From assembly GCA_035623095.1 (NCBI GenBank), contig DASPUD010000110.1:18353-82352 (forward strand): DNA of 64,000 nucleotides, in the 5' to 3' direction. Position 1 is the first letter of the stretch. Every line of letters starts with the position of its first letter. The notes under the pieces are model-generated. The model had not been told where the DNA came from. It did not search any database and saw nothing but the letters and a program-made list of their open reading frames with translations. This document shows, piece after piece, positions 1-11,869 of the stretch. The position numbers and the translations under genes are program-made. This DNA is from Pseudolabrys sp. (GTDB taxonomy: Bacteria > Pseudomonadota > Alphaproteobacteria > Rhizobiales > Xanthobacteraceae).

Positions 1-1964
1 GTACGCAGCAGCTGGTCGGTGATCGGTTTCAGCAAATAGCTCATCATGGTGCGGCTGCCGGTCTGCAGGAAAACTTCGGCCGGCATCCCTGACACCAGTT
101 TCAATTCGCCGAGTCGGCGGCGCTCGCTGCCGGGGAGGGTCACCCGCACGGTGTAATAGGGCGAACTCGTGCTGGCATTCTTGTCATGAGCCACGTCCGC
201 CGATACGTAGGACACGACTCCCTCGAGTTGCGGCGTGGTGCGCTGGTTGAAGGCAGAAAACCGCACGAAAGTCTGCTGACCCCTGTGTGCATGATCGATG
301 TCTTTGGGTGGAAGCTTCGCTTCGATCTGCAATTCGTCGGACTCCGGCACAATTTCCATTGCGACTTCGCCTGGGGCGATCACACCGCCAACGGTGTGGA
401 CAGAAAGCTGATGGACGGTTCCGCTGGTAGGCGCGCGCAAATCGACGCGCTTCAGCAAATCCTGCGCTGCGACGGTTTTCTCGACCAGCTCGGCCTCCTT
501 GTCCTGCGCCTCGCGCAAATCCTTCATGACTTCGGTACGGAAATCCTGGTCGACCCGTATAGCCTGCAGCTCTGCTTCGCTGATCTTGGATTTTGCTTCA
601 GCGATTGCCGCCGTCGCTTGACCGCGATCTCCATCGAGACGGGCGGCCTCGCGCTGCAGCGACGTTTTCCGTGTCAGCGGAACCAGCCCCTTCTGGTAGA
701 GACTGTCGACACCATCGAGTTCACCGGAAATCAGGTCATGCTGTGCGGCTTTCGATTTTACCTGGGCGTCGAGGCCGGAAATCTGCTCCTCGAGTTGCCC
801 GACGTGACCCTGCAAGAGCTGCTTGGCGTTGCGGCGCGCGGCGGCGCGGCTGGTAAACAGTGAAATCTCCGAAGTCCACAAGCTCCGTACTTCGTCGTTG
901 TTGGCTCTTTGCGCCAGTTGCTGCGGCATCTGCGGTTCGCCAAGACCGTCGCGCTCGGCGACCAGTCGCGCGCGTCGTACCCGAATCTGATCGAGCTGCT
1001 GCGTCAAAACCTGATAGTTGGAGCGCAATTGTGTCTCGTCGAGGTGCAGCAGCAGATCACCGGCGTTCACCTGCATGCCGTCGCGCACGGCAATTTGCGC
1101 CACGACGCCGCCGGTCGGGTGCTGGATCTTTTTGACATCGGTCTCCACCACAAGCGTGCCCGGCACAACGACAGCTCCGGAGAGCGGCACCAGCGTGGCC
1201 CAGCCTCCGAGGATTCCGACACCTACGAGCAGGACACGAAGACCTGTCTTGAGCTCACTCTCATACGTCTGTGTCAGGCACGTTGAGAGCTCAGGCCCGG
1301 AGCTTTCGTCAAGTCCGACCGCGCGTGTGCGGCTGAGCAAAAACGTACAGCCCTCGCGCAATCGTTCGAAGGCGCTACTGGATTGGAGACGCTCAAAGTG
1401 GCCCACCAGTGCGCTGCGTAGCTTCTTTTCGATCTCCGCCGGAGGGGGAATATCGGCGCGATCCAATAAATGTTGCCATCCCGGCTTTTCGGCGAACGTA
1501 TCGCGCTTGTGTTGCCGGATTTGATTGCTCGCGGGAATTGCCGTGAGCACCGGTCGAGCGTGGTGCCGTTCGGCGTGCGGATGCAACGAGACCTTTGGGG
1601 GAGCGCGGCGATCGGGCGTTCCCTGCGTCGACGAGATTTTTCCACCCGGTCGTGGAGCGGGCCCCCGACCAACTGGCCGGCGCCGGTTCATCCCCAAAAT
1701 ACCAAGGAACAGATCGACCGCGCTGTTGGGCGCCCTCCGAACCGGCTGCCTCAGGCTCACGATCCGGTCGGTTGGTTTCCAATCGGCTCGACGGGCCTCG
1801 ATCGTGCGCGGAAACCGCTCTTGCTCCACAAGCCGCTCTCGATCAAGCAAGTTCTGCAGCCGGCGGAGTTCGCAAATAAGAGCCGTGCCCTGCGGACCAA
1901 TCGCCGGATCGACGTCATTGTATTCGTATTCAGGCGTCTCATTTCTGTAACCGGACCAGGTCAT
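1..1964 (-). CDS. HlyD/PrtE-family type I secretion membrane fusion protein, 3'-truncated by the window edge, with a long N-terminal extension
   Basis: Not in the ORF track because it runs off the window. Manual translation from ATG 1964 (ATGA overlap with the ATPase stop) gives MTWSGYRNETPEYEY..., a TM segment GLRVLLVGVGILGGWATLVPLSGAVVVPG, the motif VKKIQHPTGGVV, and a typical C-terminus ...SGMPAEVFLQTGSRTMMSYLLKPITDQL. Confidence 0.92.
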   Translation of the reverse strand, partial: MTWSGYRNETPEYEYNDVDPAIGPQGTALICELRRLQNLLDRERLVEQERFPRTIEARRADWKPTDRIVSLRQPVRRAPNSAVDLFLGILGMNRRRPVGRGPAPRPGGKISSTQGTPDRRAPPKVSLHPHAERHHARPVLTAIPASNQIRQHKRDTFAEKPGWQHLLDRADIPPPAEIEKKLRSALVGHFERLQSSSAFERLREGCTFLLSRTRAVGLDESSGPELSTCLTQTYESELKTGLRVLLVGVGILGGWATLVPLSGAVVVPGTLVVETDVKKIQHPTGGVVAQIAVRDGMQVNAGDLLLHLDETQLRSNYQVLTQQLDQIRVRRARLVAERDGLGEPQMPQQLAQRANNDEVRSLWTSEISLFTSRAAARRNAKQLLQGHVGQLEEQISGLDAQVKSKAAQHDLISGELDGVDSLYQKGLVPLTRKTSLQREAARLDGDRGQATAAIAEAKSKISEAELQAIRVDQDFRTEVMKDLREAQDKEAELVEKTVAAQDLLKRVDLRAPTSGTVHQLSVHTVGGVIAPGEVAMEIVPESDELQIEAKLPPKDIDHAHRGQQTFVRFSAFNQRTTPQLEGVVSYVSADVAHDKNASTSSPYYTVRVTLPGSERRRLGELKLVSGMPAEVFLQTGSRTMMSYLLKPITDQLLR

Positions 1965-3712
1965 TGCGTGCCTCCCGCGCTCGATCGAGAGTCACTTCGT
2001 TTTGGCATGCGCACCGGGTGGACATTCGATTGCGCGACACGTGCGAAAATCTCTTCGCGCGGCCCGAAAGCGATCAGCCGTCCATCGTAGATGACCATCG
2101 CCATATTCAGTGCCGCCAAAGCATTCGGCCGGTGCGAAATCACGATGACGATACTCCTCTCGCGGCGCAGCGTTTCGATCGCGCCGACCAGTGCATTTTC
2201 GCCATCGGCGTCCAGATTTGCGTTTGGTTCGTCGAGCACGACCAGAAATGGACGACCGAACACAGCGCGCGCAAGGCCGATGCGTTGACGCTGTCCGGCC
2301 GATAGTGACGCGCCGCGCTCCCCGATCCGGGTGTCATAGCCATCCGGCAGACGCAGGATCATCTCGTGCGCACCGGCCACGCGTGCGGCTTTCAGGATGG
2401 ACTCCGAGTTCGCCGTATCATCAAAACGCGCGATGTTCATCGCTACCGATCCGTCGAATAGCGCGACGTCCTGAGGCAGATACCCGATATGCCGGCCAAG
2501 ATCGTCGGAATACCATCGATCGATCGCAGCGCCATCGAGTCGCACTGCGCCGGTTGCCGCCGGCCAGATACCGACCAGCGTTTTGGCGAGAGAAGATTTC
2601 CCGGCAGCGCTAGCACCGAGGAGGGCCAGTCCCATGCCTGCGTTCAGGCCAAATGAGATATGAGAGAGAACCATCCTTTGCGTGCCGGGCACGACAACGC
2701 TGACGCCCTCAACCGTCAGGGTACGATTCGGTCGCTTCAGAACGACTGCTGGCGCAGCAGGCGCCGCCGTCGCTTTGAGGATGGTACGTAGACGGTCGAT
2801 ACCCTCGCGCGCGGCAACAAGTTGTTTCCAGTTTGCCAGCGCGACTTCAACCGGCGCCAGCGCGCGCCCCATCATGATCGAGGATGCGATGATGATGCCG
2901 CCCGAGGCCTGCTCGATGACCACCAGATAGGCGCCAATACCGAGCACGGCGGATTGCAGCGCAAAGCGGAGGACCTTCGCCACGGCGCTGAGGTTCGCGT
3001 GCATTTCCGCGAGTCGCATGCTGTCTCTAACGTATTGTTCGTTCGTGCGTGACCAGCGCGCCGCCAGACGGCCTGTCATGCCGAGGGCGCGAACGACTTC
3101 GGCGTTCTGACGGAGTGCGTCGGCCAGGACCTGCCGCTGCGCGCTGCCCTCGGTCGATATTTTGGCAGCGCCTCTCGATTGACGTTCGGTGAAATACGTC
3201 ATGGCGACGATAGCCGCCGCGCCGGATGTGGCAACGACACCGATCACCGGATGAAAAAGAAACAATGCAAACAGGAAAAGCGGAATCCACGGCATGTCGA
3301 GAAACGCCGTGGGGCCTGAACCGGCGAGAAAGGCACGCACCTGATCGAGGTCGCGCAGCGGCTGTTGCGCCAAAATCGGGTTCGTGCCCCGAAGCGGTAA
3401 CGTCACAAGAGCGAAGTGAATTCCCGTCTGCAGTTTGACATCGAACAGGGCGGCAATCCGCGCCAGCATGCGGCTCCGCAGTGCGTCGAAATAGCCCTGC
3501 AGCAGGTAAGCGATTGCCACGATCGCCGAAAGTCCGAACAACGTAGCGAGGTCACGGCTCGGGATCACCCGATCGTAGACCTGCAACATATATATTGACC
3601 CGGACAGGGTCAGCAGATTGACGATGCCGCTGAAAACCGCAACGCCCGCCAGTCGCCGCCGGCTTGCGCGCAATTGGACGGCGACCGGATCGTCCCCCTC
3701 GAATGAAAGCAT
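1961..3712 (-). CDS. Type I secretion ABC permease/ATPase, PrtD/HasD type (no C39 domain)
   Basis: N-terminal FSGIVNLLTLSGSIYMLQVYDRV, FLDMPWIP, Walker A GASAAGKSS, signature LSAGQRQRIGLARA, Walker B LVVLDEPNANLD. Start taken at ATG 3712; the ORF is open to 3745. Confidence 0.95.
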   Translation of the reverse strand: MLSFEGDDPVAVQLRASRRRLAGVAVFSGIVNLLTLSGSIYMLQVYDRVIPSRDLATLFGLSAIVAIAYLLQGYFDALRSRMLARIAALFDVKLQTGIHFALVTLPLRGTNPILAQQPLRDLDQVRAFLAGSGPTAFLDMPWIPLFLFALFLFHPVIGVVATSGAAAIVAMTYFTERQSRGAAKISTEGSAQRQVLADALRQNAEVVRALGMTGRLAARWSRTNEQYVRDSMRLAEMHANLSAVAKVLRFALQSAVLGIGAYLVVIEQASGGIIIASSIMMGRALAPVEVALANWKQLVAAREGIDRLRTILKATAAPAAPAVVLKRPNRTLTVEGVSVVVPGTQRMVLSHISFGLNAGMGLALLGASAAGKSSLAKTLVGIWPAATGAVRLDGAAIDRWYSDDLGRHIGYLPQDVALFDGSVAMNIARFDDTANSESILKAARVAGAHEMILRLPDGYDTRIGERGASLSAGQRQRIGLARAVFGRPFLVVLDEPNANLDADGENALVGAIETLRRERSIVIVISHRPNALAALNMAMVIYDGRLIAFGPREEIFARVAQSNVHPVRMPKRSDSRSSAGGTQ

Positions 3713-3832
3713 ACTGCCACGCTTTGCCTTCGATCTGATCCGCAAACCGTGAGCATCGATAGCGACAAAAGTTCGGCAAGATCGAAATTAGAAAATTGCG
3801 GACAGGCGTCACGCGAATTATTCTTCTCGCGC

Positions 3833-3891
3833 GGTAATCGGTTCTGACTGGGAATCAAAAATGTTTAGCGCGCGTGGTAATCTGTTCTGAC
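3833..3891. promoter_or_regulatory. 16-bp direct repeat pair, candidate transcription-factor site in a divergent promoter region
   Basis: GGTAATCGGTTCTGAC (3833-3848) and GGTAATCTGTTCTGAC (3876-3891), 15/16 identical, 43 bp apart. Confidence 0.5.
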
Positions 3892-4068
3892 GAATTTAGG
3901 CGCCTTCAAATCGTCCACGAATGATCACAGTTTTGGTCCTGCGTGTTCTCAATTCAGTCGGACCGCAGCCACGTTGGTAGCCAACGATACGTTGGCACAC
4001 GAAGTTCGCATCGATCCACACCGCAATTCTCTCAATCGTACTCTAGGTAATGACAGGGGAGGCGACTT

Positions 4069-5496
4069 ATGGCGCATCATCCGAACCGCTCGCATGATTT
4101 CGGTCACGGCAACACACACACTCCAGCACCACAGCAACAGCAGATGTCGTTTGCGGACATTGGGACGCTCTACAATTCGATAAACAATGAAGTCATGGGC
4201 GGTATCACCACGCAAAACCAGCAACTGCTTTTCGATCAGGTCTCTACGGTCCAGAGACAACTTCAAAGCCTGATCGACAGCGGCGCCTTGAACAATCTGG
4301 ACGGTGCGGGAAATCCCGCCATAAGCCTTGTCCATGCCCAGAACATTGCCGATCAAATGACTTTCCTGAAAACGGAGATCGCGGCGTTCGGAACAGGAGC
4401 CAATGTCCCACCCAAATTCATCAACGATGTTGTCAGGGATGTCCAGGATATCGTAGCCAGCGATCCGCAACTGACCGCGCTCGCGCGTCAAGGCAATCAC
4501 GCCGGTTTTGAGCAGTTCTCATTTCTATTGACGCCGCCAACACCTTTCCCTGATACCCCGTTGCAAACGGACACCCTTCTGAAATTCATCGCCGACTCAA
4601 ACGATCTCGCCGCGCGCGCTCAGGCGCTTGCCGGACACGATCCTAACGGTGCTGACAAAGCGGCGATCGCACAGCTGGAAACCGATGTTCATAGTTTTTC
4701 GCTCGCCGCCGATCAGTATTCGACGGCACAGGGTGGAGTGTTTTCCGCCCGCTTCAACAATGAATTCACCCTTGATGGTGTTCAGGGAACGGCGTCGCGT
4801 GAACTGATCACCGGTCTTCAAACCGGGAATGCAGATCTGGTAAATGGCGCGGCAGCCGTTCTGATGGCGAATGCCGGTGACGTTCGGGGAAACATGCTCG
4901 CTAATGGGCTTGGCCCCGACGGGCAGCCGTTTGTGCCCGCGCCGAACGGCGGAATTCCTGACGATATCAATACGGTGAATGTTGCCGGGCTTGTCTTCAA
5001 CGATTCCATGACCAAGCTCATTGGCGGTGTCTATTCCGGCAACCAGCAATCCATCGTCAATGATCTGAATGCGACCGCCACCGGTCTCCAGAACGCTATT
5101 GCGAACCAAGGGATCACCGGCCATGCCCTCCACGACGTCAATCAGGTCATAGCTCTCTTGGGCCAGGAAGCTGCCCTTGTGGGCAAAATCAATACCGCGG
5201 AAGCCACACCGCTTTCCGCGGTCAACGGCCAGATCAATCAAATTCAGGCGCAAATTCTCAACGTGATCAACCATGATACGACTCTGGCGACCTTGGCCAC
5301 AGGTACCGATGCCGACGGCAATGCGACCACTGGCTTCGTGGCGTTACCGCCGGGCACGAACAACCCGAACTCCGCAAACGTCGTCGCAACGGGCGGAGGA
5401 AACACTCCGCCGCCTACGAACCATGGCGCACATGGGGCCCCTGCACCTGACCATTCCACCCCTCCTAACTTTCACTTTGAACATCACTGGGGTTAG
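4069..5496 (+). CDS. Uncharacterised Asn/Gln/Ala-rich helical protein with His-rich termini; candidate type I secretion substrate
   Basis: 475 aa, RBS GGGGAGG upstream, no Sec signal, no TM, no Cys, ends ...NFHFEHHWG, internal duplication, divergent from the T1SS genes. Confidence 0.85.
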   Translation: MAHHPNRSHDFGHGNTHTPAPQQQQMSFADIGTLYNSINNEVMGGITTQNQQLLFDQVSTVQRQLQSLIDSGALNNLDGAGNPAISLVHAQNIADQMTFLKTEIAAFGTGANVPPKFINDVVRDVQDIVASDPQLTALARQGNHAGFEQFSFLLTPPTPFPDTPLQTDTLLKFIADSNDLAARAQALAGHDPNGADKAAIAQLETDVHSFSLAADQYSTAQGGVFSARFNNEFTLDGVQGTASRELITGLQTGNADLVNGAAAVLMANAGDVRGNMLANGLGPDGQPFVPAPNGGIPDDINTVNVAGLVFNDSMTKLIGGVYSGNQQSIVNDLNATATGLQNAIANQGITGHALHDVNQVIALLGQEAALVGKINTAEATPLSAVNGQINQIQAQILNVINHDTTLATLATGTDADGNATTGFVALPPGTNNPNSANVVATGGGNTPPPTNHGAHGAPAPDHSTPPNFHFEHHWG

Positions 5497-5597
5497 CCAG
5501 GCCGCGGCGTGCCGGAACAACTGAGTCAGATCGTTCGAACCTGACGGGACGCAGGTGGAACGGGTTGGAGGCAGATTCCGAACTCGCTAGGTGGGGC

Positions 5598-7538
5598 ATG
5601 GGAAGTAGACGCTGTTCAAGCAGCCGAAGAACCGACTACGGGACGGTCATACTGCACTGGTGTCTGGTCGCGGCGCTCGCGGTCGTAGTCCTCAGCGGAC
5701 TGAGGATCGCCAGCGAGTCGCCCGGCCGCGCCTGGATTGGTGCCTTCGATTCTATCCTCCCGCGCCATTTCGTTTGGACCGCGCACATGCAGGCCGCGGT
5801 CGTGCTGGTGCTGGTGGCTATCGCTTACCCGATCTATCTCGCACTCGCTGGATTGTGGCGGCGCGTCCGCTTCGATCGTGTTCGCATGAGCGGCCTGTTC
5901 GGCCGATATCAGGCGCGCTGGAGCGCCATCAATGTCGCGCTTACCTGGATTTTTTATCTCACGCTGCTGACGGAAATCGTGACCGGCGCGCTCATGTATT
6001 TCGATTATGGCAGTGGATTTGTAATCACAGTCCATTGGTTGGGAATGTGGGTCGTCTGCGCCTACCTCTTCGCTCACGTGCTTGCTCACTGGAAAGTCGG
6101 CCGTGCGCGCCAACTGCTACGCATATTCCGGCCATCGCGCTTGTTGCCGCCGCCTCCGAAGTTCGACCCGGTCGAACTTTTGGAGCTGCTTGATCAACCG
6201 GCAGCCAGGCCAGCCGACTTCCGGCCTCCGCGAGCGAGGCATCTCGAGCAGGAGCGGCGCGATCTGGAAGCATTCAGGCGCTTTGCGCCACCCAAAGATC
6301 GTTTCTCGTCGGCACGAGTTGCGCCTAGCTCGCGGCATTTCCCGGGTGAACAACATGACGCCACGCAGGGGCCCGGCCGATCGCGTCAACGCGGTTTCGT
6401 GGTTCAGTCCAATCCCCTCGTCGTGGCCATGGCTGTAGCCATCGCTGCCACGTCGCTTATGGTGACAGCACAACTTGAAACGTCCGACACACTGGAGATT
6501 CGTCGCGTCGAAGCTTCCAAAGCTCCGATCATCGATGGTGATACGTCTGACCGGGTTTGGCGGGATACAAAGCCCGTTTACTTGCTCACCGGCCATGGCG
6601 ACAATTTCGACGGCAAAGGCGAGACGACCATAGAGATCCGCGCGGTTCACGACGGGCAGTGGGCGTATTTCCTGTTCGCCTGGGACGATCCAACGCGTTC
6701 ATTGAAACAGCTGCCGTTACTGAAAACCCCCGACGGCTGGAGGCTGCTTCACGAGGGCTTTGAGGCTGGAGAAGAGCATGCGTACAACGAAGACAAATTT
6801 GCGGTCCTGTTGACCAAGCTTGATGTCGTTCTGGCTGGCGACCGCACCTTCCACGCCAGTGCTGAGCCATTGGATGGCAAGCCGCGCACGATTTCCGGCC
6901 GCGGCCTGCACTACACCGAACAGCCCGGCCTTTTTGTCGATGTCTGGGAATGGAAGGCGACGAGCACGGGCTCGGCCGGATTTATGGACGACGTTTATTT
7001 TGGTCCACCAGCCGAGCCCACCGTTGCGCAGGCGGAAGGCAAATTTCCCTATCGGGGTGGTTTTGCGGCCGATCCCGGTACCGCCAGCTACCGCGACAAT
7101 TTCGCGGTTGATGATGCGCAAGAGTACAGCAAGGTCGTGCGGCCTCTCCGTCTGCCAAAAGATCTGGCTGCAATGATAGCTGCGTTGGGCGAAATCGATC
7201 TTGATCCCAACCATGGAGAGAGCGCCGGCGCGCGCTGGTACATGACCGAAGAGGAATCATTGCCGTATTCGCGCGAGCGAGACGCCAGGATTCCGATCGG
7301 CACGGTAGTTCCCGGCGTCATTGTCTCCGGCAGTTACTCGGGGGATCGCGCTGATGTGCGCTGCGCGGCTCGCTGGGCAGCCGGCCGTTGGGCGCTCGAA
7401 GTCCGGCGGCGGCTCGACACGGGCAGCCGCTACGATGTGCCTATCAGCACCGGCACGTTCATGCGTGTCGCAGCGTTCGATCACACTCAAATCAGCCACA
7501 CGCGGCACGTACGTCCCGTACGTCTGGAGGTGGAATAG
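5598..7538 (+). CDS. Cytochrome b (Ni/Fe-hydrogenase b-type/b561-like, 4 TM) fused to an ethylbenzene-dehydrogenase-gamma-like (EB_dh, DOMON-like) heme domain
   Basis: TM His residues ILHWCL, WTAHMQ, ITVHWL, FAHVLAH; fifth TM NPLVVAMAVAIAA; PIIDGD..D..W, YFLFAWDDPTRS, NEDKFAV, DVWEWKA, RWALEVRRRLDTG. Start ATG 5598 (ORF open from TTG 5565). Confidence 0.8.
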   Translation: MGSRRCSSSRRTDYGTVILHWCLVAALAVVVLSGLRIASESPGRAWIGAFDSILPRHFVWTAHMQAAVVLVLVAIAYPIYLALAGLWRRVRFDRVRMSGLFGRYQARWSAINVALTWIFYLTLLTEIVTGALMYFDYGSGFVITVHWLGMWVVCAYLFAHVLAHWKVGRARQLLRIFRPSRLLPPPPKFDPVELLELLDQPAARPADFRPPRARHLEQERRDLEAFRRFAPPKDRFSSARVAPSSRHFPGEQHDATQGPGRSRQRGFVVQSNPLVVAMAVAIAATSLMVTAQLETSDTLEIRRVEASKAPIIDGDTSDRVWRDTKPVYLLTGHGDNFDGKGETTIEIRAVHDGQWAYFLFAWDDPTRSLKQLPLLKTPDGWRLLHEGFEAGEEHAYNEDKFAVLLTKLDVVLAGDRTFHASAEPLDGKPRTISGRGLHYTEQPGLFVDVWEWKATSTGSAGFMDDVYFGPPAEPTVAQAEGKFPYRGGFAADPGTASYRDNFAVDDAQEYSKVVRPLRLPKDLAAMIAALGEIDLDPNHGESAGARWYMTEEESLPYSRERDARIPIGTVVPGVIVSGSYSGDRADVRCAARWAAGRWALEVRRRLDTGSRYDVPISTGTFMRVAAFDHTQISHTRHVRPVRLEVE

Positions 7539-8608
7539 TGGGTAAGATCTGCAGACTGGAAGTGAATGGTGACACGATGTCGGCGCGCCGTGGTGACTTG
7601 TTGCTGGACACCGCGTTGCTCAACGGCGTCGATATTCCGCACGACTGCCGCTCCGGTCATTGCGGCACATGCCGTGTGCGCCTGCTTGCCGGCCGTGTGT
7701 TCGGCGGAAAGACCGACGATCCGGAAATCATATGCGCATGCCAGTCCCGTATCGTTTCTGATCTTAGCATCGCTGTTGAAGACGTGCCTGAGGCGGTCAC
7801 CGTGCCCGGCGTGGTGGCGGACGTTACGCCGCTGGCGTCAGATGTATGCGAAGTCGCCATCGAAGCATCTGAACCGCCCGAGTACCTTCCAGGCCAGTAT
7901 TATGCCGTGCAATTCCGCGGCTTTCCCGCGCGCTGTTTCAGCCCAACGGTGCCGCTTGACTGGCCGTCCAACGAAGCGCTTGTGCGGTTTCACATCAAGA
8001 GGGTGCCGAACGGCGTGGTATCCGCGTCGCTCGGCAGACGCATCTGCGCAGGACATCGGGTCAAACTTCAAGGTCCGTTCGGTTCAGCCTATCTGAGACC
8101 TTTTGCCGGTCGTCGCCTGGTTTTGATCGCGGGCGGGACTGGCTTTGCACCCATATGGTCGATCGCGGAGGCCGCGATCAGGAGCGAACCGCGCCGCGAA
8201 CTCGTGCTCATCGTCGCGGCACGGACAGTCGAGTCGCTATACATGCTTCCGGCACTTTGCCGGTTGGCGCTGTTTCCCAATGTCACGATCATTCCCGTGG
8301 TTGCGCAGGACCAAAACATCACTCCGGTCATCCGCTGCGGAACGCCCACCGACCATATTCCGGAGTTGAATGAGCACGACATCGTCTTCGCGGCCGGCGC
8401 GCCGGACATGGTGCGGGCGGTCGCCCCCATCGCTAATGCCGCCGGGGCGAAATGCTATGCCGATCCGTTCGAGGCGAGCTCGCAGGTCACGACGACGGAT
8501 TTCTGGTCACGTGCCGCGGCTTGGTTGGGCAACGATGCGCCCGCCTCTCGACGGGGAAAGCGCGGAAACCAGAGCGAATTTCAAGCGGCGCTCAACGCCC
8601 AATCTTGA
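7538..8608 (+). CDS. 2Fe-2S ferredoxin / FAD-NAD(P)H reductase (FNR-like) fusion
   Basis: CRSGHCGTC...ICAC cluster motif, RCFS, GVVS, GPFG, AGGTGFAP. GTG start at 7538 overlaps the upstream TAG (TAGTG) with RBS GGAGG at 7526-7530. Confidence 0.93.
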   Translation: MGKICRLEVNGDTMSARRGDLLLDTALLNGVDIPHDCRSGHCGTCRVRLLAGRVFGGKTDDPEIICACQSRIVSDLSIAVEDVPEAVTVPGVVADVTPLASDVCEVAIEASEPPEYLPGQYYAVQFRGFPARCFSPTVPLDWPSNEALVRFHIKRVPNGVVSASLGRRICAGHRVKLQGPFGSAYLRPFAGRRLVLIAGGTGFAPIWSIAEAAIRSEPRRELVLIVAARTVESLYMLPALCRLALFPNVTIIPVVAQDQNITPVIRCGTPTDHIPELNEHDIVFAAGAPDMVRAVAPIANAAGAKCYADPFEASSQVTTTDFWSRAAAWLGNDAPASRRGKRGNQSEFQAALNAQS

Positions 8609-8962: not shown

Positions 8963-10564
8963 ATGGTATTCAGGGACAGGGCGGCTGAGGCCTACCGGGC
9001 GGGCAACACACAGCCAGCAAATATAATGACTGATACGACAAAAGCATTGTCGCATGGTTCCACATTTGCTGTGGAACAGATCAGGTGGCCGACGACCTAT
9101 CGGTTGGCCGCTGTGTTGGCGCTCGTGCTTGCCATGGTCGCTGCGCGTTGCTGGGTCGTTGTCCACAGTGATTTTGAAACCGATGAGGCTTACTACTGGC
9201 TCTGGTCCCATGGCTTAGCGTGGGGTTATTTCGATCACCCGCCGATGATCGCCTACTTCATCCGGGCGGGAACTCTTTTCTTCGGCGATACCATCTTGGG
9301 CATTCGGAGCATGGCCATCTTTGCGATGGCCGCCGCTTCCGCGCTCGTCTACATCCTGACACTGGTCCTGTTCGATGACCGCCGCCTCGGTGCGCTGGCC
9401 CTGTTGTGGTTCAGCGTCATGCCGCATACGGCGTTCTTCTCGATCATTACGTTTCCCGATACCCCTGCCATTCTGTTCTGGTGCATTGCTTGCGTGGCAC
9501 TGGCCATGGTGTGGCGCAGTGGCCGCGGTGGGTGGTGGTATCTCGTCGGTGTGGCTACTGGGCTTCTGCTCCTCAGCAAATATACCGGCGTGTTTCTCAT
9601 TTGCGGCATTGCGGCGTGGCTCGTGCTCGCGGTCGAAATGCGGCCGTGGCTTACGCGGTGCGAGCCTTACATTGCCGGCATGATCGCGCTGGTGCTTTTC
9701 AGTCCGGTGATCGTGTGGAACGCCCAACACGGCTGGGTCTCATTTATCAAACAGTTCGGGCGCGCCTTTGACCATTCGCCGGTTGGCGGTCTCGACAACG
9801 TGGCTGTTTTTGTGGGCATCCAGGCGGCGTTTGTTTCGCCGCTCATATTCGCGTTCATCGTCGCCGGCCTCGCAGTCGCGGTTGTGCGCGGGATACGGCG
9901 CCAAGAAGCGAACTGGCTTTTGTTGGCGGTCACGTCGGCGCCGATGCTGCTTTATTTTCTGCTGCACGCCTTCTCGGCTGAGGTGCTGCCACAATGGCCA
10001 AGCGCCGTGTATGCGGCGGGTGTCGTTGCCGCAGTCGCCGCGTTTGCCACGCCGAAGGACAATGTCGAGCCTCGCTCCCTTGTGCGGTATTGCTTCAATG
10101 CGGCGCCATGGGTCGGGCTCGTATTCACGCTGGCTCTTCTGACACAGATGACTATACGGCCGGCCCCCATCGCGGCGGCAAATGATCCGCTCAGCCGGTT
10201 TGTCGGCTGGGCGGACTTGTCGGCAAAAACGCGTGTCGTGGTCGAGGCGCAGCAGGCTCATTACATCGTAACCAATGAGCAAGGTCTTGATGGCGCGCTG
10301 GCGTTCTATCTCCGAGACATCACGGTTTTTCAGGCGTCGGAATCCATCCGCTATGAATCGCTACCACCGGTGGATCAGGCTTTGCTTCGCCGGGCGGTCG
10401 GAATTTACATATCGCTGGCGCCTGCCGGCGATCTTGCTCTGCTCAAGAGTCATTATGATTCAGTTGAACTTGTTTCAACGATTTGGCGTACCCGCAGCGA
10501 AGACCGGATCGAGCCGTATTACATTTACCGGTTGAAGGGCTATCGCGGCGGTCTGCCACTCTAA
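8963..10564 (+). CDS. Glycosyltransferase family 39 / ArnT-like polytopic membrane protein
   Basis: DEAYYWLWS..LAWGYFDHPPM, FPDTP, LLSKYTG, SPVIVWNAQHGW; many TMs. Start may be ATG 9026. Confidence 0.9.
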   Translation: MVFRDRAAEAYRAGNTQPANIMTDTTKALSHGSTFAVEQIRWPTTYRLAAVLALVLAMVAARCWVVVHSDFETDEAYYWLWSHGLAWGYFDHPPMIAYFIRAGTLFFGDTILGIRSMAIFAMAAASALVYILTLVLFDDRRLGALALLWFSVMPHTAFFSIITFPDTPAILFWCIACVALAMVWRSGRGGWWYLVGVATGLLLLSKYTGVFLICGIAAWLVLAVEMRPWLTRCEPYIAGMIALVLFSPVIVWNAQHGWVSFIKQFGRAFDHSPVGGLDNVAVFVGIQAAFVSPLIFAFIVAGLAVAVVRGIRRQEANWLLLAVTSAPMLLYFLLHAFSAEVLPQWPSAVYAAGVVAAVAAFATPKDNVEPRSLVRYCFNAAPWVGLVFTLALLTQMTIRPAPIAAANDPLSRFVGWADLSAKTRVVVEAQQAHYIVTNEQGLDGALAFYLRDITVFQASESIRYESLPPVDQALLRRAVGIYISLAPAGDLALLKSHYDSVELVSTIWRTRSEDRIEPYYIYRLKGYRGGLPL

Positions 10565-10591: not shown

Positions 10592-11869
10592 TCAACCCGC
10601 CGCCGTGCGAGAAACGCTTCGATCAGGACGGCTCGACGACCGCACTGTCAGGTATGCGTTGGCTGCTGTGAAGACCTGCTCGACGCTGATCGCGCTCATG
10701 CAGACGTTGTCAGTGCATGCACTCTTGCGATGGTTGTTGACGTTGACGCAAGGCGAGCAGGCAAGGCCGGCGTAAATCGGAATTGAATTGCCGAGAGGGC
10801 GGTATAGGTCCGGCGTTTCCGGTCCAAACAGCACGACCGTTGGCAGCCCGCTGGCCGCGGCAAAATGTGCCGGCCCGGAGTCGTTGCTGACCATAAAAAC
10901 AGCAAGCGAATACAATGCGGGCAGGTCAGTCAGGGCCAAAGACCCGGCGACCGAAACGCAACGGTCGCTCTGGGCCTGCGCGGCCAGCTTCTCCGCCTCA
11001 ACCCGTTCGTGCGGAGCGCCGGTAATCAGCACCACAACATCATCATAAGCCGCCAGAATGCGGCGGATCAGGTGCAGGAAGCGATTTGGCATCCAGCGCC
11101 TCTGAGGAAGCATTTCGCCGGCATTGGGATTTATCAGCACCACCCGGAACTGTGACACGTCATGCGCTGGGACCAGCGGCTTGATCTTGGCAAGCGCGGC
11201 CGCCCGCGCCGATGGCGACACTGGCCGCAAAGGAAGAGTTATTTCACCGTCATCAATAATGGTTTTTGAGTAAGGAACTGTCGGCGCCTCGCTCAAGAGG
11301 GCGTTCACCAGAGCGATGAAGTTCTTGGCGATATGAATGTGCGGATTGTATGCGACTTGATGCGTCAGCATATCGCCGCGATACAGGCCTTCATTGTTGA
11401 ATCGAAAAAAGCCCAAGCGCCGGTCGGCGCCGGATAGCCCGCTCAGCAATCCGGTGAATCGCGAAAATAGTTCAAGGTCGATCACCGTGTCGATTGAATT
11501 ACGCCGCGTCCAACGCAAAAAAGCCACTGTATCCAGGGCCAGCTCCCAGAGTGAGCTTGTGCGGATTGTGAAGACATTGGACGGTGCGACCGTGCCCATG
11601 ATTGCCAGCGATTCGGCATTGCGTGCAAAGATTACAAAATAATTTTCCGCACCGGTCCTTTCCCGGACCTTGCGCATGGCTGGGTCGGCGAGAATTGTGC
11701 TGCCCATTTCCGACAGCTCGATAAACAAAACACGAGCAATGGGACGTGGCCGGTTCGGTCGGAGGCGCCACCAGATTTTCAGAGCAATCGTCGCCAGGAA
11801 GCAGAGCGGCACTCCCGCAATGCGATCAATCCGGCGCATCGTGTCGATGCTGATACTATTTCCACTCAC
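10592..11869 (-). CDS. Glycosyltransferase family 9 (heptosyltransferase-like)
   Basis: ELSEMGSTIL, INPNA...RRW, SNDSGPAHFAAA..PTVVLFGP, C-terminal CSPC...C....CM. Confidence 0.9.
   Translation of the reverse strand: MSGNSISIDTMRRIDRIAGVPLCFLATIALKIWWRLRPNRPRPIARVLFIELSEMGSTILADPAMRKVRERTGAENYFVIFARNAESLAIMGTVAPSNVFTIRTSSLWELALDTVAFLRWTRRNSIDTVIDLELFSRFTGLLSGLSGADRRLGFFRFNNEGLYRGDMLTHQVAYNPHIHIAKNFIALVNALLSEAPTVPYSKTIIDDGEITLPLRPVSPSARAAALAKIKPLVPAHDVSQFRVVLINPNAGEMLPQRRWMPNRFLHLIRRILAAYDDVVVLITGAPHERVEAEKLAAQAQSDRCVSVAGSLALTDLPALYSLAVFMVSNDSGPAHFAAASGLPTVVLFGPETPDLYRPLGNSIPIYAGLACSPCVNVNNHRKSACTDNVCMSAISVEQVFTAANAYLTVRSSSRPDRSVSRTAAG

Follow-up and report, generated by a model that had tools for sequence, protein, structure and literature searches.

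The DNA considered here is a stretch of 64,000 nt from a contig of Pseudolabrys sp. (G000:C110:18353-82352, called the window below), which belongs to a 3.5-Mb assembly that is 89% complete. The public sequencing runs that carry the same DNA are peat metagenomes, and no RNA run carrying it is listed among the public runs. At the left end of the window, five genes lie on the two sides of a divergent intergenic region (Table 1). On one side are the ATP-binding cassette (ABC) protein and the HlyD-family adaptor (membrane fusion protein, MFP) of a type I secretion system (T1SS). On the other are an orphan protein of 475 aa, a cytochrome b fused to a domain of the EB_dh type, and a soluble reductase. 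The original prediction, made from the sequence letters, had read this arrangement as an undescribed system joining protein secretion to a chain of electron carriers, and its five-gene layout is borne out in all elements by the open reading frame (ORF) map, the translations and the family scans, with small coordinate corrections only. The family matches for the export and redox genes all exceed curated cut-offs, and the T1SS parts, the redox domains and the membrane topology are assigned by homology and architecture.

Table 1. Features of the five-gene locus, in window coordinates.
Feature	Position	Strand	Basis
HlyD-family T1SS adaptor (MFP)	1-1964	-	TIGR01843, HlyD_3 and Biotin_lipoyl_2 matches
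PrtD/HasD-class T1SS ABC permease/ATPase	1961-3745	-	TIGR01842, ABC_membrane and ABC_tran matches
Divergent intergenic region, 323 nt	3746-4068		Sequence and alignment of 7 orthologous regions
Orphan 475-aa protein, probable T1SS cargo	4069-5496	+	No Pfam/NCBIfam match; T1SS adjacency
Cytochrome b-EB_dh fusion	5598-7538	+	PF01292 and PF09459
Soluble BenC-like reductase, 356 aa	7538-8608	+	Fer2, FAD_binding_6 and NAD_binding_1

Conserved gene neighbourhood had been named in advance as the evidence that would speak for a system, and co-localisation is indeed conserved, whether it is viewed from the 475-aa protein (the candidate cargo) or from the EB_dh protein. On the cargo side, 63 species-level genomic loci with a relative of the 475-aa protein were inspected for neighbours within 10 kb. 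T1SS and redox genes are both present in 28 of them and a T1SS in 9 more; 2 truncated loci show redox genes only, and 24, several of which sit on short contigs, show neither. All five genes fall within 7.3-12.8 kb in 27 distinct loci and occur in nine gene orders, one of them with all genes co-directional. In L022 (and apparently also in L024) the reductase gene stands directly upstream of the ABC-MFP genes, separated from the cytochrome gene. On the EB_dh side, 396 species-level genomes have a relative, and among the best 80 loci (61-81% identity) there are 57 with full 8-kb flanks. Within these 8 kb the reductase is found in 57/57, a T1SS in 57/57 and a detectable cargo gene in 47/57. Genomes in which a cargo gene stands alone, including those of photosynthetic Bradyrhizobium, carry the cytochrome-EB_dh gene elsewhere in 5/5 tested, with a T1SS beside it in 4/5 and a second clear cargo copy in 3 of those 4. 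Among 401 genomes sampled evenly across the order, the cargo family occurs in 3 and the cytochrome-EB_dh fusion in about 14, and co-occurrence of the two is therefore far from the background rate.

The hosts of the module are Pseudolabrys, Bradyrhizobium, Tardiphaga, Hyphomicrobiaceae and Rhodoblastus, and the synteny is kept through nine rearrangements and several bacterial families. Moreover, the flanks differ in the Pseudolabrys relatives, which indicates that the five genes move as a block. From these neighbourhoods, the five genes very probably form one module, as the original prediction had supposed. The rival explanation that bears most directly on this linkage is co-location without shared chemistry. 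Here the T1SS would export a structural, adhesive or antagonistic helical protein and the cytochrome and reductase would have a separate task in the periplasm (repair, respiration or signalling, for example), with co-regulation or inheritance as an island holding the genes together. The cytochrome-reductase pair does stand alone in other families, beside a sensor for cyclic di-GMP (c-di-GMP), cargo paralogues are found at separate loci, and no physical link between the proteins was found in this analysis. However, a T1SS that accompanies the pair in 57/57 loci of the clade, a linkage kept through nine gene orders and across families, and a reductase gene placed directly upstream of ABC-MFP in two loci are together hard to explain without selection for joint function. 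We consider mere co-location unlikely.

Some features of the surroundings vary from lineage to lineage. The flanks in the Pseudolabrys genome itself hold two genes for PMT_2 (ArnT-like) membrane glycosyltransferases and one for a GT9 heptosyltransferase (L002:13297-14901, to the left of the window; window 8963-10564 and 10592-11869). Only in one Bradyrhizobium subclade is the module joined by genes for HtpG (Hsp90) and for a 271-aa protein that matches nothing in Pfam (L077:17499-19475, L090, L044, L049, L052, L053 and 14 loci of the EB_dh side). Genes for a thiamine pyrophosphate enzyme and a short-chain dehydrogenase/reductase, considered as further parts, turned out to be local synteny of lone cargo copies only. 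In the complete genome of Bradyrhizobium oligotrophicum S58 strain E20 (CP192619.1, L097), the cytochrome-EB_dh and adaptor genes each match in two adjoining frames, which may reflect frameshifts or sequencing errors of that strain. Two metagenome-assembled genomes, one labelled Bacteroidota (L024) and one labelled Steroidobacteraceae (L118), carry module genes that resemble alphaproteobacterial ones, and these are probably either contaminated bins or cases of module transfer.

The export arm is conventional in its parts. The ABC protein scores 661 bits against TIGR01842 (type_I_sec_PrtD, cut-off 510), with a match that begins at residue 26 of 594 aa; the start is probably the ATG at 3712, and relatives are called at 584 aa. 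It has no N-terminal C39 or CLD domain. Its stop codon overlaps the ATG of the adaptor gene by 4 nt (ATGA), just as had been noted for the coupling of the two genes. The adaptor matches TIGR01843 over residues 239-651 (372 bits, cut-off 209), and its gene continues for 10 nt beyond the left window edge to give a protein of 657 aa. Codons 1 to about 235 (window 1260-1964, minus strand) encode a basic cytoplasmic extension with a pI of 9.9, which is followed by one transmembrane (TM) helix and the periplasmic core. This extension is present in the closest relatives only, at 28-38% identity, and absent from more distant modules; in one relative it was called as a separate gene by one gene caller. 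No TolC gene adjoins this locus. Contig C133 of this genome carries the gene for a TolC-type OEP protein of 501 aa, and OEP/TolC genes are adjacent to the cargo gene in 10 related loci. By homology, then, the ABC protein, the adaptor and the TolC-type channel make this a T1SS of the PrtD/HasD class.

The 475-aa protein has the traits expected of something such a system would export. It contains no Cys, one Trp and three Tyr, has a pI of 4.7 and lacks an N-terminal hydrophobic signal. Its His residues are gathered at the two ends, with 5 among the first 17 residues and 6 among the last 24, and a GGGGAGG ribosome-binding site lies 6 nt 5' of its ATG. Few proteins belong to its family, which counts 153 clusters (50% identity) in a set of 1.84 billion representatives. 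Conservation is high across the family core (residues 25-430); the His-rich N-terminus differs between members or is lacking, and some relatives begin with His-rich runs such as HHRHHHDSHHGHHHH. Nearly every member ends in H-H-x-x-H-x-W-G/A, including repeated-domain proteins of up to about 1200 aa, and among the 99 ORFs of at least 150 aa in the window an end of the H-H-x-x-H-x-W-G type is found in the 475-aa protein only. The original prediction had presented this protein as a T1SS substrate, and the absence of a signal peptide, the lack of Cys, the acidic composition, the conserved C-terminus and the T1SS/TolC neighbours all agree, indirectly, with that view. Given the TolC adjacency in the 10 related loci and this composition, export by the T1SS is the most likely route. 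We infer secretion on these grounds and see a good chance that the protein is the cargo of this very T1SS. At L031, L041, L044, L048, L051, L053, L054 and L063, giant paralogues of 850 to about 1750 aa repeat the helical domain without a recognisable fused domain, or two cargo genes occur at one locus; a Pfam scan of seven long multi-domain paralogues returned no informative fused domain.

What the cargo does is less apparent from its relatives. Scans of the 475-aa protein against Pfam and NCBIfam gave no match even at E 10, and a profile search of the PDB returned a single row at chance level. Two known classes of T1SS cargo were considered. An RTX protein does not fit, as neither HemolysinCabind nor any other Pfam family matched even at E 10 and no GGxGxD nonapeptide repeats were seen. 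The hemophore HasA has an alpha/beta fold. It was set aside as well, with no Pfam or PDB sequence match and with a cargo model that is all-helical and built of four-helix bundles. This AlphaFold2 model, calculated for residues 20-290 from a deep alignment, reaches a pLDDT of 90.1 and a pTM of 0.87 and shows two bundles; the full-length model (pLDDT 62.8) adds a third, so that the predicted bundles span about 26-141, 158-282 and 299-405, the third being weakly similar to the first (E 0.002). Foldseek searches of the PDB with the full-length and domain models gave no match at E <= 0.001, and VIA-align wide retrieved generic four-helix bundles only (Z <= 10.7 over about 105-120 residues, with a root-mean-square deviation of about 3 Å). 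In the ESM Atlas the model found TM scores of <= 0.38 by shape and nothing by features. Conservation is highest at a group of polar residues (H89, Q96, D120, D124, D127, D132, Q166, T167, Q221, R228, N231, E232, N268, D271 and N275), which suggests a binding or catalytic site. As a domain that is confidently modelled and for which no relative was found, the cargo is a target for structural and functional work.

The redox arm is made up of two genes. The reductase begins with a GTG at 7538 that shares one base with the preceding TAG (TAGTG), the overlap from which its coupling to the cytochrome gene had been read. Its plant-type 2Fe-2S ferredoxin domain precedes the domains that bind FAD and NAD(P), and the motifs CX4CX2C (CRSGHCGTC), RCFS and GGTGFAP are present. 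Assignment as a BenC equivalog fails at 120 bits against a cut-off of 430. The reductase gene adjoins the cytochrome-EB_dh gene in all loci of two samples, 14/14 and 57/57. The cytochrome-EB_dh gene starts with the ATG at 5598, not the TTG at 5565. Its product, for which residue numbers follow the P0004 numbering, matches PF01292 with 39 bits (cut-off 30) and PF09459 with 110.5 bits (cut-off 33.3, E 1.7e-31). The predicted layout is four TM helices, a Pro/Arg-rich cytoplasmic linker, a fifth TM helix and an EB_dh/DOMON-like domain, which the positive-inside linker and the fifth helix place in the periplasm. In the membrane part, H31, H74, H157 and H171 are invariant in 40-41 of 41 homologues; the invariant residues of the EB_dh part are K381, K387, K411, H430, H449, H640, H645 and H648.

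The nature of the EB_dh heme may bear on the direction of electron flow. A profile of the domain reaches NxrC, the gamma subunit of nitrite oxidoreductase, with an E of 1.3e-9. The heme ligands of NxrC are Met155 and Lys305 (PMC8387239). By the spacing of aligned blocks, the invariant His449 (GLHYT) and His648 (FDHxxxxHTRHxRP) lie at most one residue from these two positions, with the numbering of the paper assumed to be that of the chain. The EB_dh domain here has no invariant Met, and its heme ligands are probably His/His and not Met/Lys. The original assignment to the EbdC type therefore holds for the family, through the PF09459 and NxrC matches, and probably not for the ligands. A His/His heme would have a lower potential than the Met/Lys heme of dehydrogenase subunits, as would suit electron donation. 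In addition, three further invariant His and several Lys/Arg in the domain suggest a substrate site, again from sequence.

No molybdopterin enzyme (PF00384) is present on this contig or among the conserved neighbours of the pair, and the alpha and beta partner subunits of EB_dh proteins were not found. The earlier remark that the usual molybdoenzyme is missing from the locus is therefore correct. The genome has one EB_dh gene and eight molybdopterin enzymes, the latter on other contigs. These eight enzymes leave room for a reversed or quinone-linked flow. As in EbdC and NxrC, the EB_dh heme would then be the acceptor for a periplasmic dehydrogenase encoded away from the module, and the electrons would go on through cytochrome b to quinone, or by way of the reductase into the cytoplasm. 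PF01292 proteins frequently react with quinones, which would accord with such a route, and the EB_dh subunits that have been characterised accept electrons from molybdoenzymes (PMC8387239). However, no locus examined has a module-linked molybdoenzyme, the Met/Lys positions that give an acceptor-type high potential hold His (by alignment spacing), and an obligate, translationally coupled reductase of the NAD(P)H type makes sense as a donor. We hold reversed flow to be very improbable. Outward flow from NAD(P)H is likely, and the domain order of the redox genes fits the chain from NAD(P)H to the periplasm, free of a molybdoenzyme, that had been proposed.

The redox pair also has a life of its own. 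In 14/14 loci taken from the 401-genome sample, the reductase gene comes after the cytochrome-EB_dh gene, with a T1SS in the Xanthobacteraceae-type loci only. In other families of Hyphomicrobiales the pair has neither T1SS nor cargo and stands beside genes for a distant PstS-family binding protein and a HAMP-PAS-GGDEF-EAL membrane protein (L080:4375-8082, L083:12079-15803, L081, L082, L084, L085, L086 and L087). Since the pair occurs there without them, it appears to be self-sufficient, with the T1SS and cargo as a lineage-specific partner. The claim that the five genes form a unit is thus upheld for the module and has to be widened for the pair, which is more broadly distributed and self-standing elsewhere. 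A phylum-wide sample shows few cytochrome-EB_dh fusions beyond the order. Metagenomes, including those of soil, contain many, with at least 1379 protein clusters, which are annotated only as 'ethylbenzene dehydrogenase-related protein' or 'cytochrome b561'.

The PstS/GGDEF-EAL context hints at a link of the pair to oxyanion sensing and c-di-GMP. It is also the starting point for an explanation in terms of phosphate mobilisation, by which the chain would reduce the Fe(III) that holds phosphate in acidic peat and the secreted protein would help to bind Fe or phosphate. Besides the PstS-family protein, which is coupled to the GGDEF-EAL sensor beside the pair in sister clades, the peat origin of the DNA speaks for it. 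So do the plant CYBDOM ferric reductases, which are tied to phosphate deficiency and act on apoplastic Fe under phosphate stress, according to the portions available of two reports (PMC10784544, PMC10784552). On the other hand, the PstS-like matches are far below family cut-offs, the module contains no phosphatase or Pst transporter, and reading the intergenic region by eye gave no convincing Pho box. Phosphate mobilisation is accordingly an improbable reading.

The intergenic region itself offers few clues to regulation. The sequence GGTAATCnGTTCTGAC occurs as two direct copies 42 nt apart (3835-3850 and 3877-3892), a feature seen in this genome alone. Also upstream of the cargo gene is a block conserved in the closest relatives, which covers about 90 nt (3897-3985) in the 7 aligned orthologous regions. 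No covarying RNA structure was detected in it and an Rfam scan of the region gave no match, so that the block is probably a promoter or an operator. A simple promoter scan of the region found no sigma-70-like promoter, and visual inspection for boxes of the Fur, Irr, Zur, Pho and EcfG types yielded nothing convincing.

Taken together, the two arms suggest a mechanism. The PrtD/HasD-class T1SS would consist of the ABC protein, the HlyD adaptor and a TolC-type channel whose gene lies on another contig, and the 475-aa protein would be its dedicated cargo. The reductase would draw electrons from NAD(P)H through FAD and the 2Fe-2S center and deliver them to two hemes b of the membrane cytochrome, from which they would pass to the periplasmic EB_dh heme with its probable His/His ligation. 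The pair would in that case be a self-sufficient NAD(P)H:periplasmic-acceptor reductase, a bacterial analogue, and not a homologue, of the NADPH oxidases (NOX), of CYBDOM proteins and of MsrQ-Fre. Both arms would serve one process of the cell envelope, in which a metal ion, Fe(III) or Cu(II), is captured or presented by the His-tailed protein after its export and is reduced by the chain. As a whole, a two-arm module of export and outward electron chain, with metal coupling as the most likely purpose, is the best explanation of the locus, and we judge its chances to be about even. The parts of this explanation differ in strength. Metal reduction that involves the cargo is a tentative proposal. 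A little more doubtful still is its fuller form, an envelope system of a kind not recognised before, in which a secreted 'metallophore protein' from a new four-helix-bundle family works with a CYBDOM-like reductase powered by NAD(P)H. In soil Hyphomicrobiales, the two would jointly capture Fe(III) or Cu(II) and reduce it outside the cytoplasm, or would free Fe-bound phosphate there. The identity of the electron acceptor and the role of the cargo are speculative.

Several points weigh against this explanation. T1SS cargo normally bypasses the periplasm, and given that the EB_dh domain is sited there, a contact between the two is not obvious. PF01292 cytochromes are usually quinone-reactive, and a quinol route for the electrons could operate as well. 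Heme binding by the EB_dh domain and the identity of its ligands come from sequence spacing, together with the assumed equality of paper and chain numbering. The best-conserved residues of the cargo comprise only one His, besides Asp, Asn, Gln and Glu, and indicate no particular metal, and its variable His-rich N-terminus is absent in many family members. Where the pair occurs without T1SS or cargo, it evidently does not need the cargo. Furthermore, no TonB-dependent receptor, metal importer or metal-responsive regulator is found among the conserved neighbours of the module. A complex prediction for the EB_dh domain and the 475-aa protein, run without controls, gave a score of 0.00 and counts neither for nor against binding.

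The difficulty of a periplasmic donor and an extracellular cargo would vanish if the chain reduced periplasmic O2 to superoxide or H2O2, since such an oxidant could cross the outer membrane. The exported protein would then be the extracellular user or target of the oxidant, for instance in matrix cross-linking, in the oxidation of Mn or organic matter in peat, or in protection. The architecture parallels that of NADPH oxidases, with an NAD(P)H-FAD module feeding two TM hemes, and a low-potential, His-ligated outer heme would react with O2. The PF01292 family also includes E. coli CybB, a superoxide:quinone oxidoreductase, which counts in favour of oxidant chemistry. However, the cargo has no peroxidase, oxidase or dismutase domain and only 3 Tyr and 1 Trp, and the many invariant basic and His residues of the EB_dh domain beyond its two ligands suggest a specific bound substrate. 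Oxidant production is on balance rather improbable. We thus place metal reduction with the cargo first, followed by co-location, NOX-like oxidant production, phosphate-linked Fe(III) reduction and reversed or quinone-linked flow.

If metal reduction with the cargo is right, the module would be a protein-based route of reductive acquisition, distinct from siderophore/TonB and hemophore systems. The pair would represent an uncharacterised bacterial path for NAD(P)H electrons across the inner membrane, built from families other than those of NOX, MsrQ and CYBDOM. Its obligate linkage to a T1SS and an orphan cargo family in Bradyrhizobium, Pseudolabrys and relatives would also be, to our knowledge, the first case in which protein secretion and an extracytoplasmic electron supply are selected as one unit. 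The module could bear on the metal, phosphate or oxidant chemistry of acidic soils and the rhizosphere, and cultured carriers (B. jicamae, B. lablabi, B. valentinum, B. oligotrophicum and Rhodoblastus acidophilus) make it testable.

Full-text literature searches found no characterised system of this five-gene composition, in line with what had been stated at the outset. Nevertheless, each part can be set beside a known system. The HasDEF/HasA and PrtDEF secretion systems share with the export arm the PrtD-type ABC protein, the type I HlyD adaptor and the adjacent cargo gene, and the cargo resembles HasA in being signal-less, acidic, free of Cys and without RTX repeats. Unlike these systems, the T1SS here is fixed beside a redox pair, and its cargo shares neither sequence nor fold with HasA, proteases or lipases. 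Among the closest relatives its adaptor also bears the cytoplasmic extension of about 235 aa, and a HasR-type receptor is missing.

For the redox pair, the nearest analogues are the CYBDOM proteins, NOX and the bacterial MsrQ-Fre pair. The eukaryotic CYBDOM proteins, such as the Arabidopsis HYP1 and CRR ferric reductases, likewise join a two-heme TM cytochrome to an outer DOMON-like heme domain, and they export electrons to reduce an external acceptor, as described in the portions available of the same two reports (PMC10784544, PMC10784552). However, the membrane part here is the prokaryotic PF01292 and the outer domain is of the EB_dh type, and the donor is a dedicated NAD(P)H/2Fe-2S reductase in place of ascorbate. 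As PF01292 and PF09459 were the only matches, membership in the eukaryotic CYBDOM family was rejected, and the likeness is one of architecture and function by analogy. NOX and MsrQ-Fre follow the same order of NAD(P)H, flavin, two stacked membrane hemes and an acceptor outside the cytoplasm, and MsrQ-Fre resembles the pair further in that its flavin reductase is soluble and separate from the membrane protein. The locus differs in lacking the ferric-reductase (FRD) TM domain and MsrP and in having an additional 2Fe-2S center and a third, periplasmic heme domain. A place in the NOX/MsrQ family was likewise rejected, as the FRD-type six-TM diheme domain has no Pfam or NCBIfam match in the locus.

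The EbdC/NxrC gamma subunits are the relatives of the outer domain, as the PF09459 and NxrC profile matches attest. Here the domain is instead tethered to the membrane, fused to cytochrome b and free of alpha and beta subunits, with invariant His probably occupying the Met/Lys ligand positions. The reductase, finally, agrees with the oxygenase reductases of the BenC/AntC type in domain order (Fer2-FAD-NAD) and cofactor motifs. It differs in its score (120 against 430 bits) and in having no oxygenase partner, its invariable partner being a membrane cytochrome. The parts therefore come from known families and their combination is a variant of known systems, with a sizeable chance that it represents a new kind of envelope redox system.

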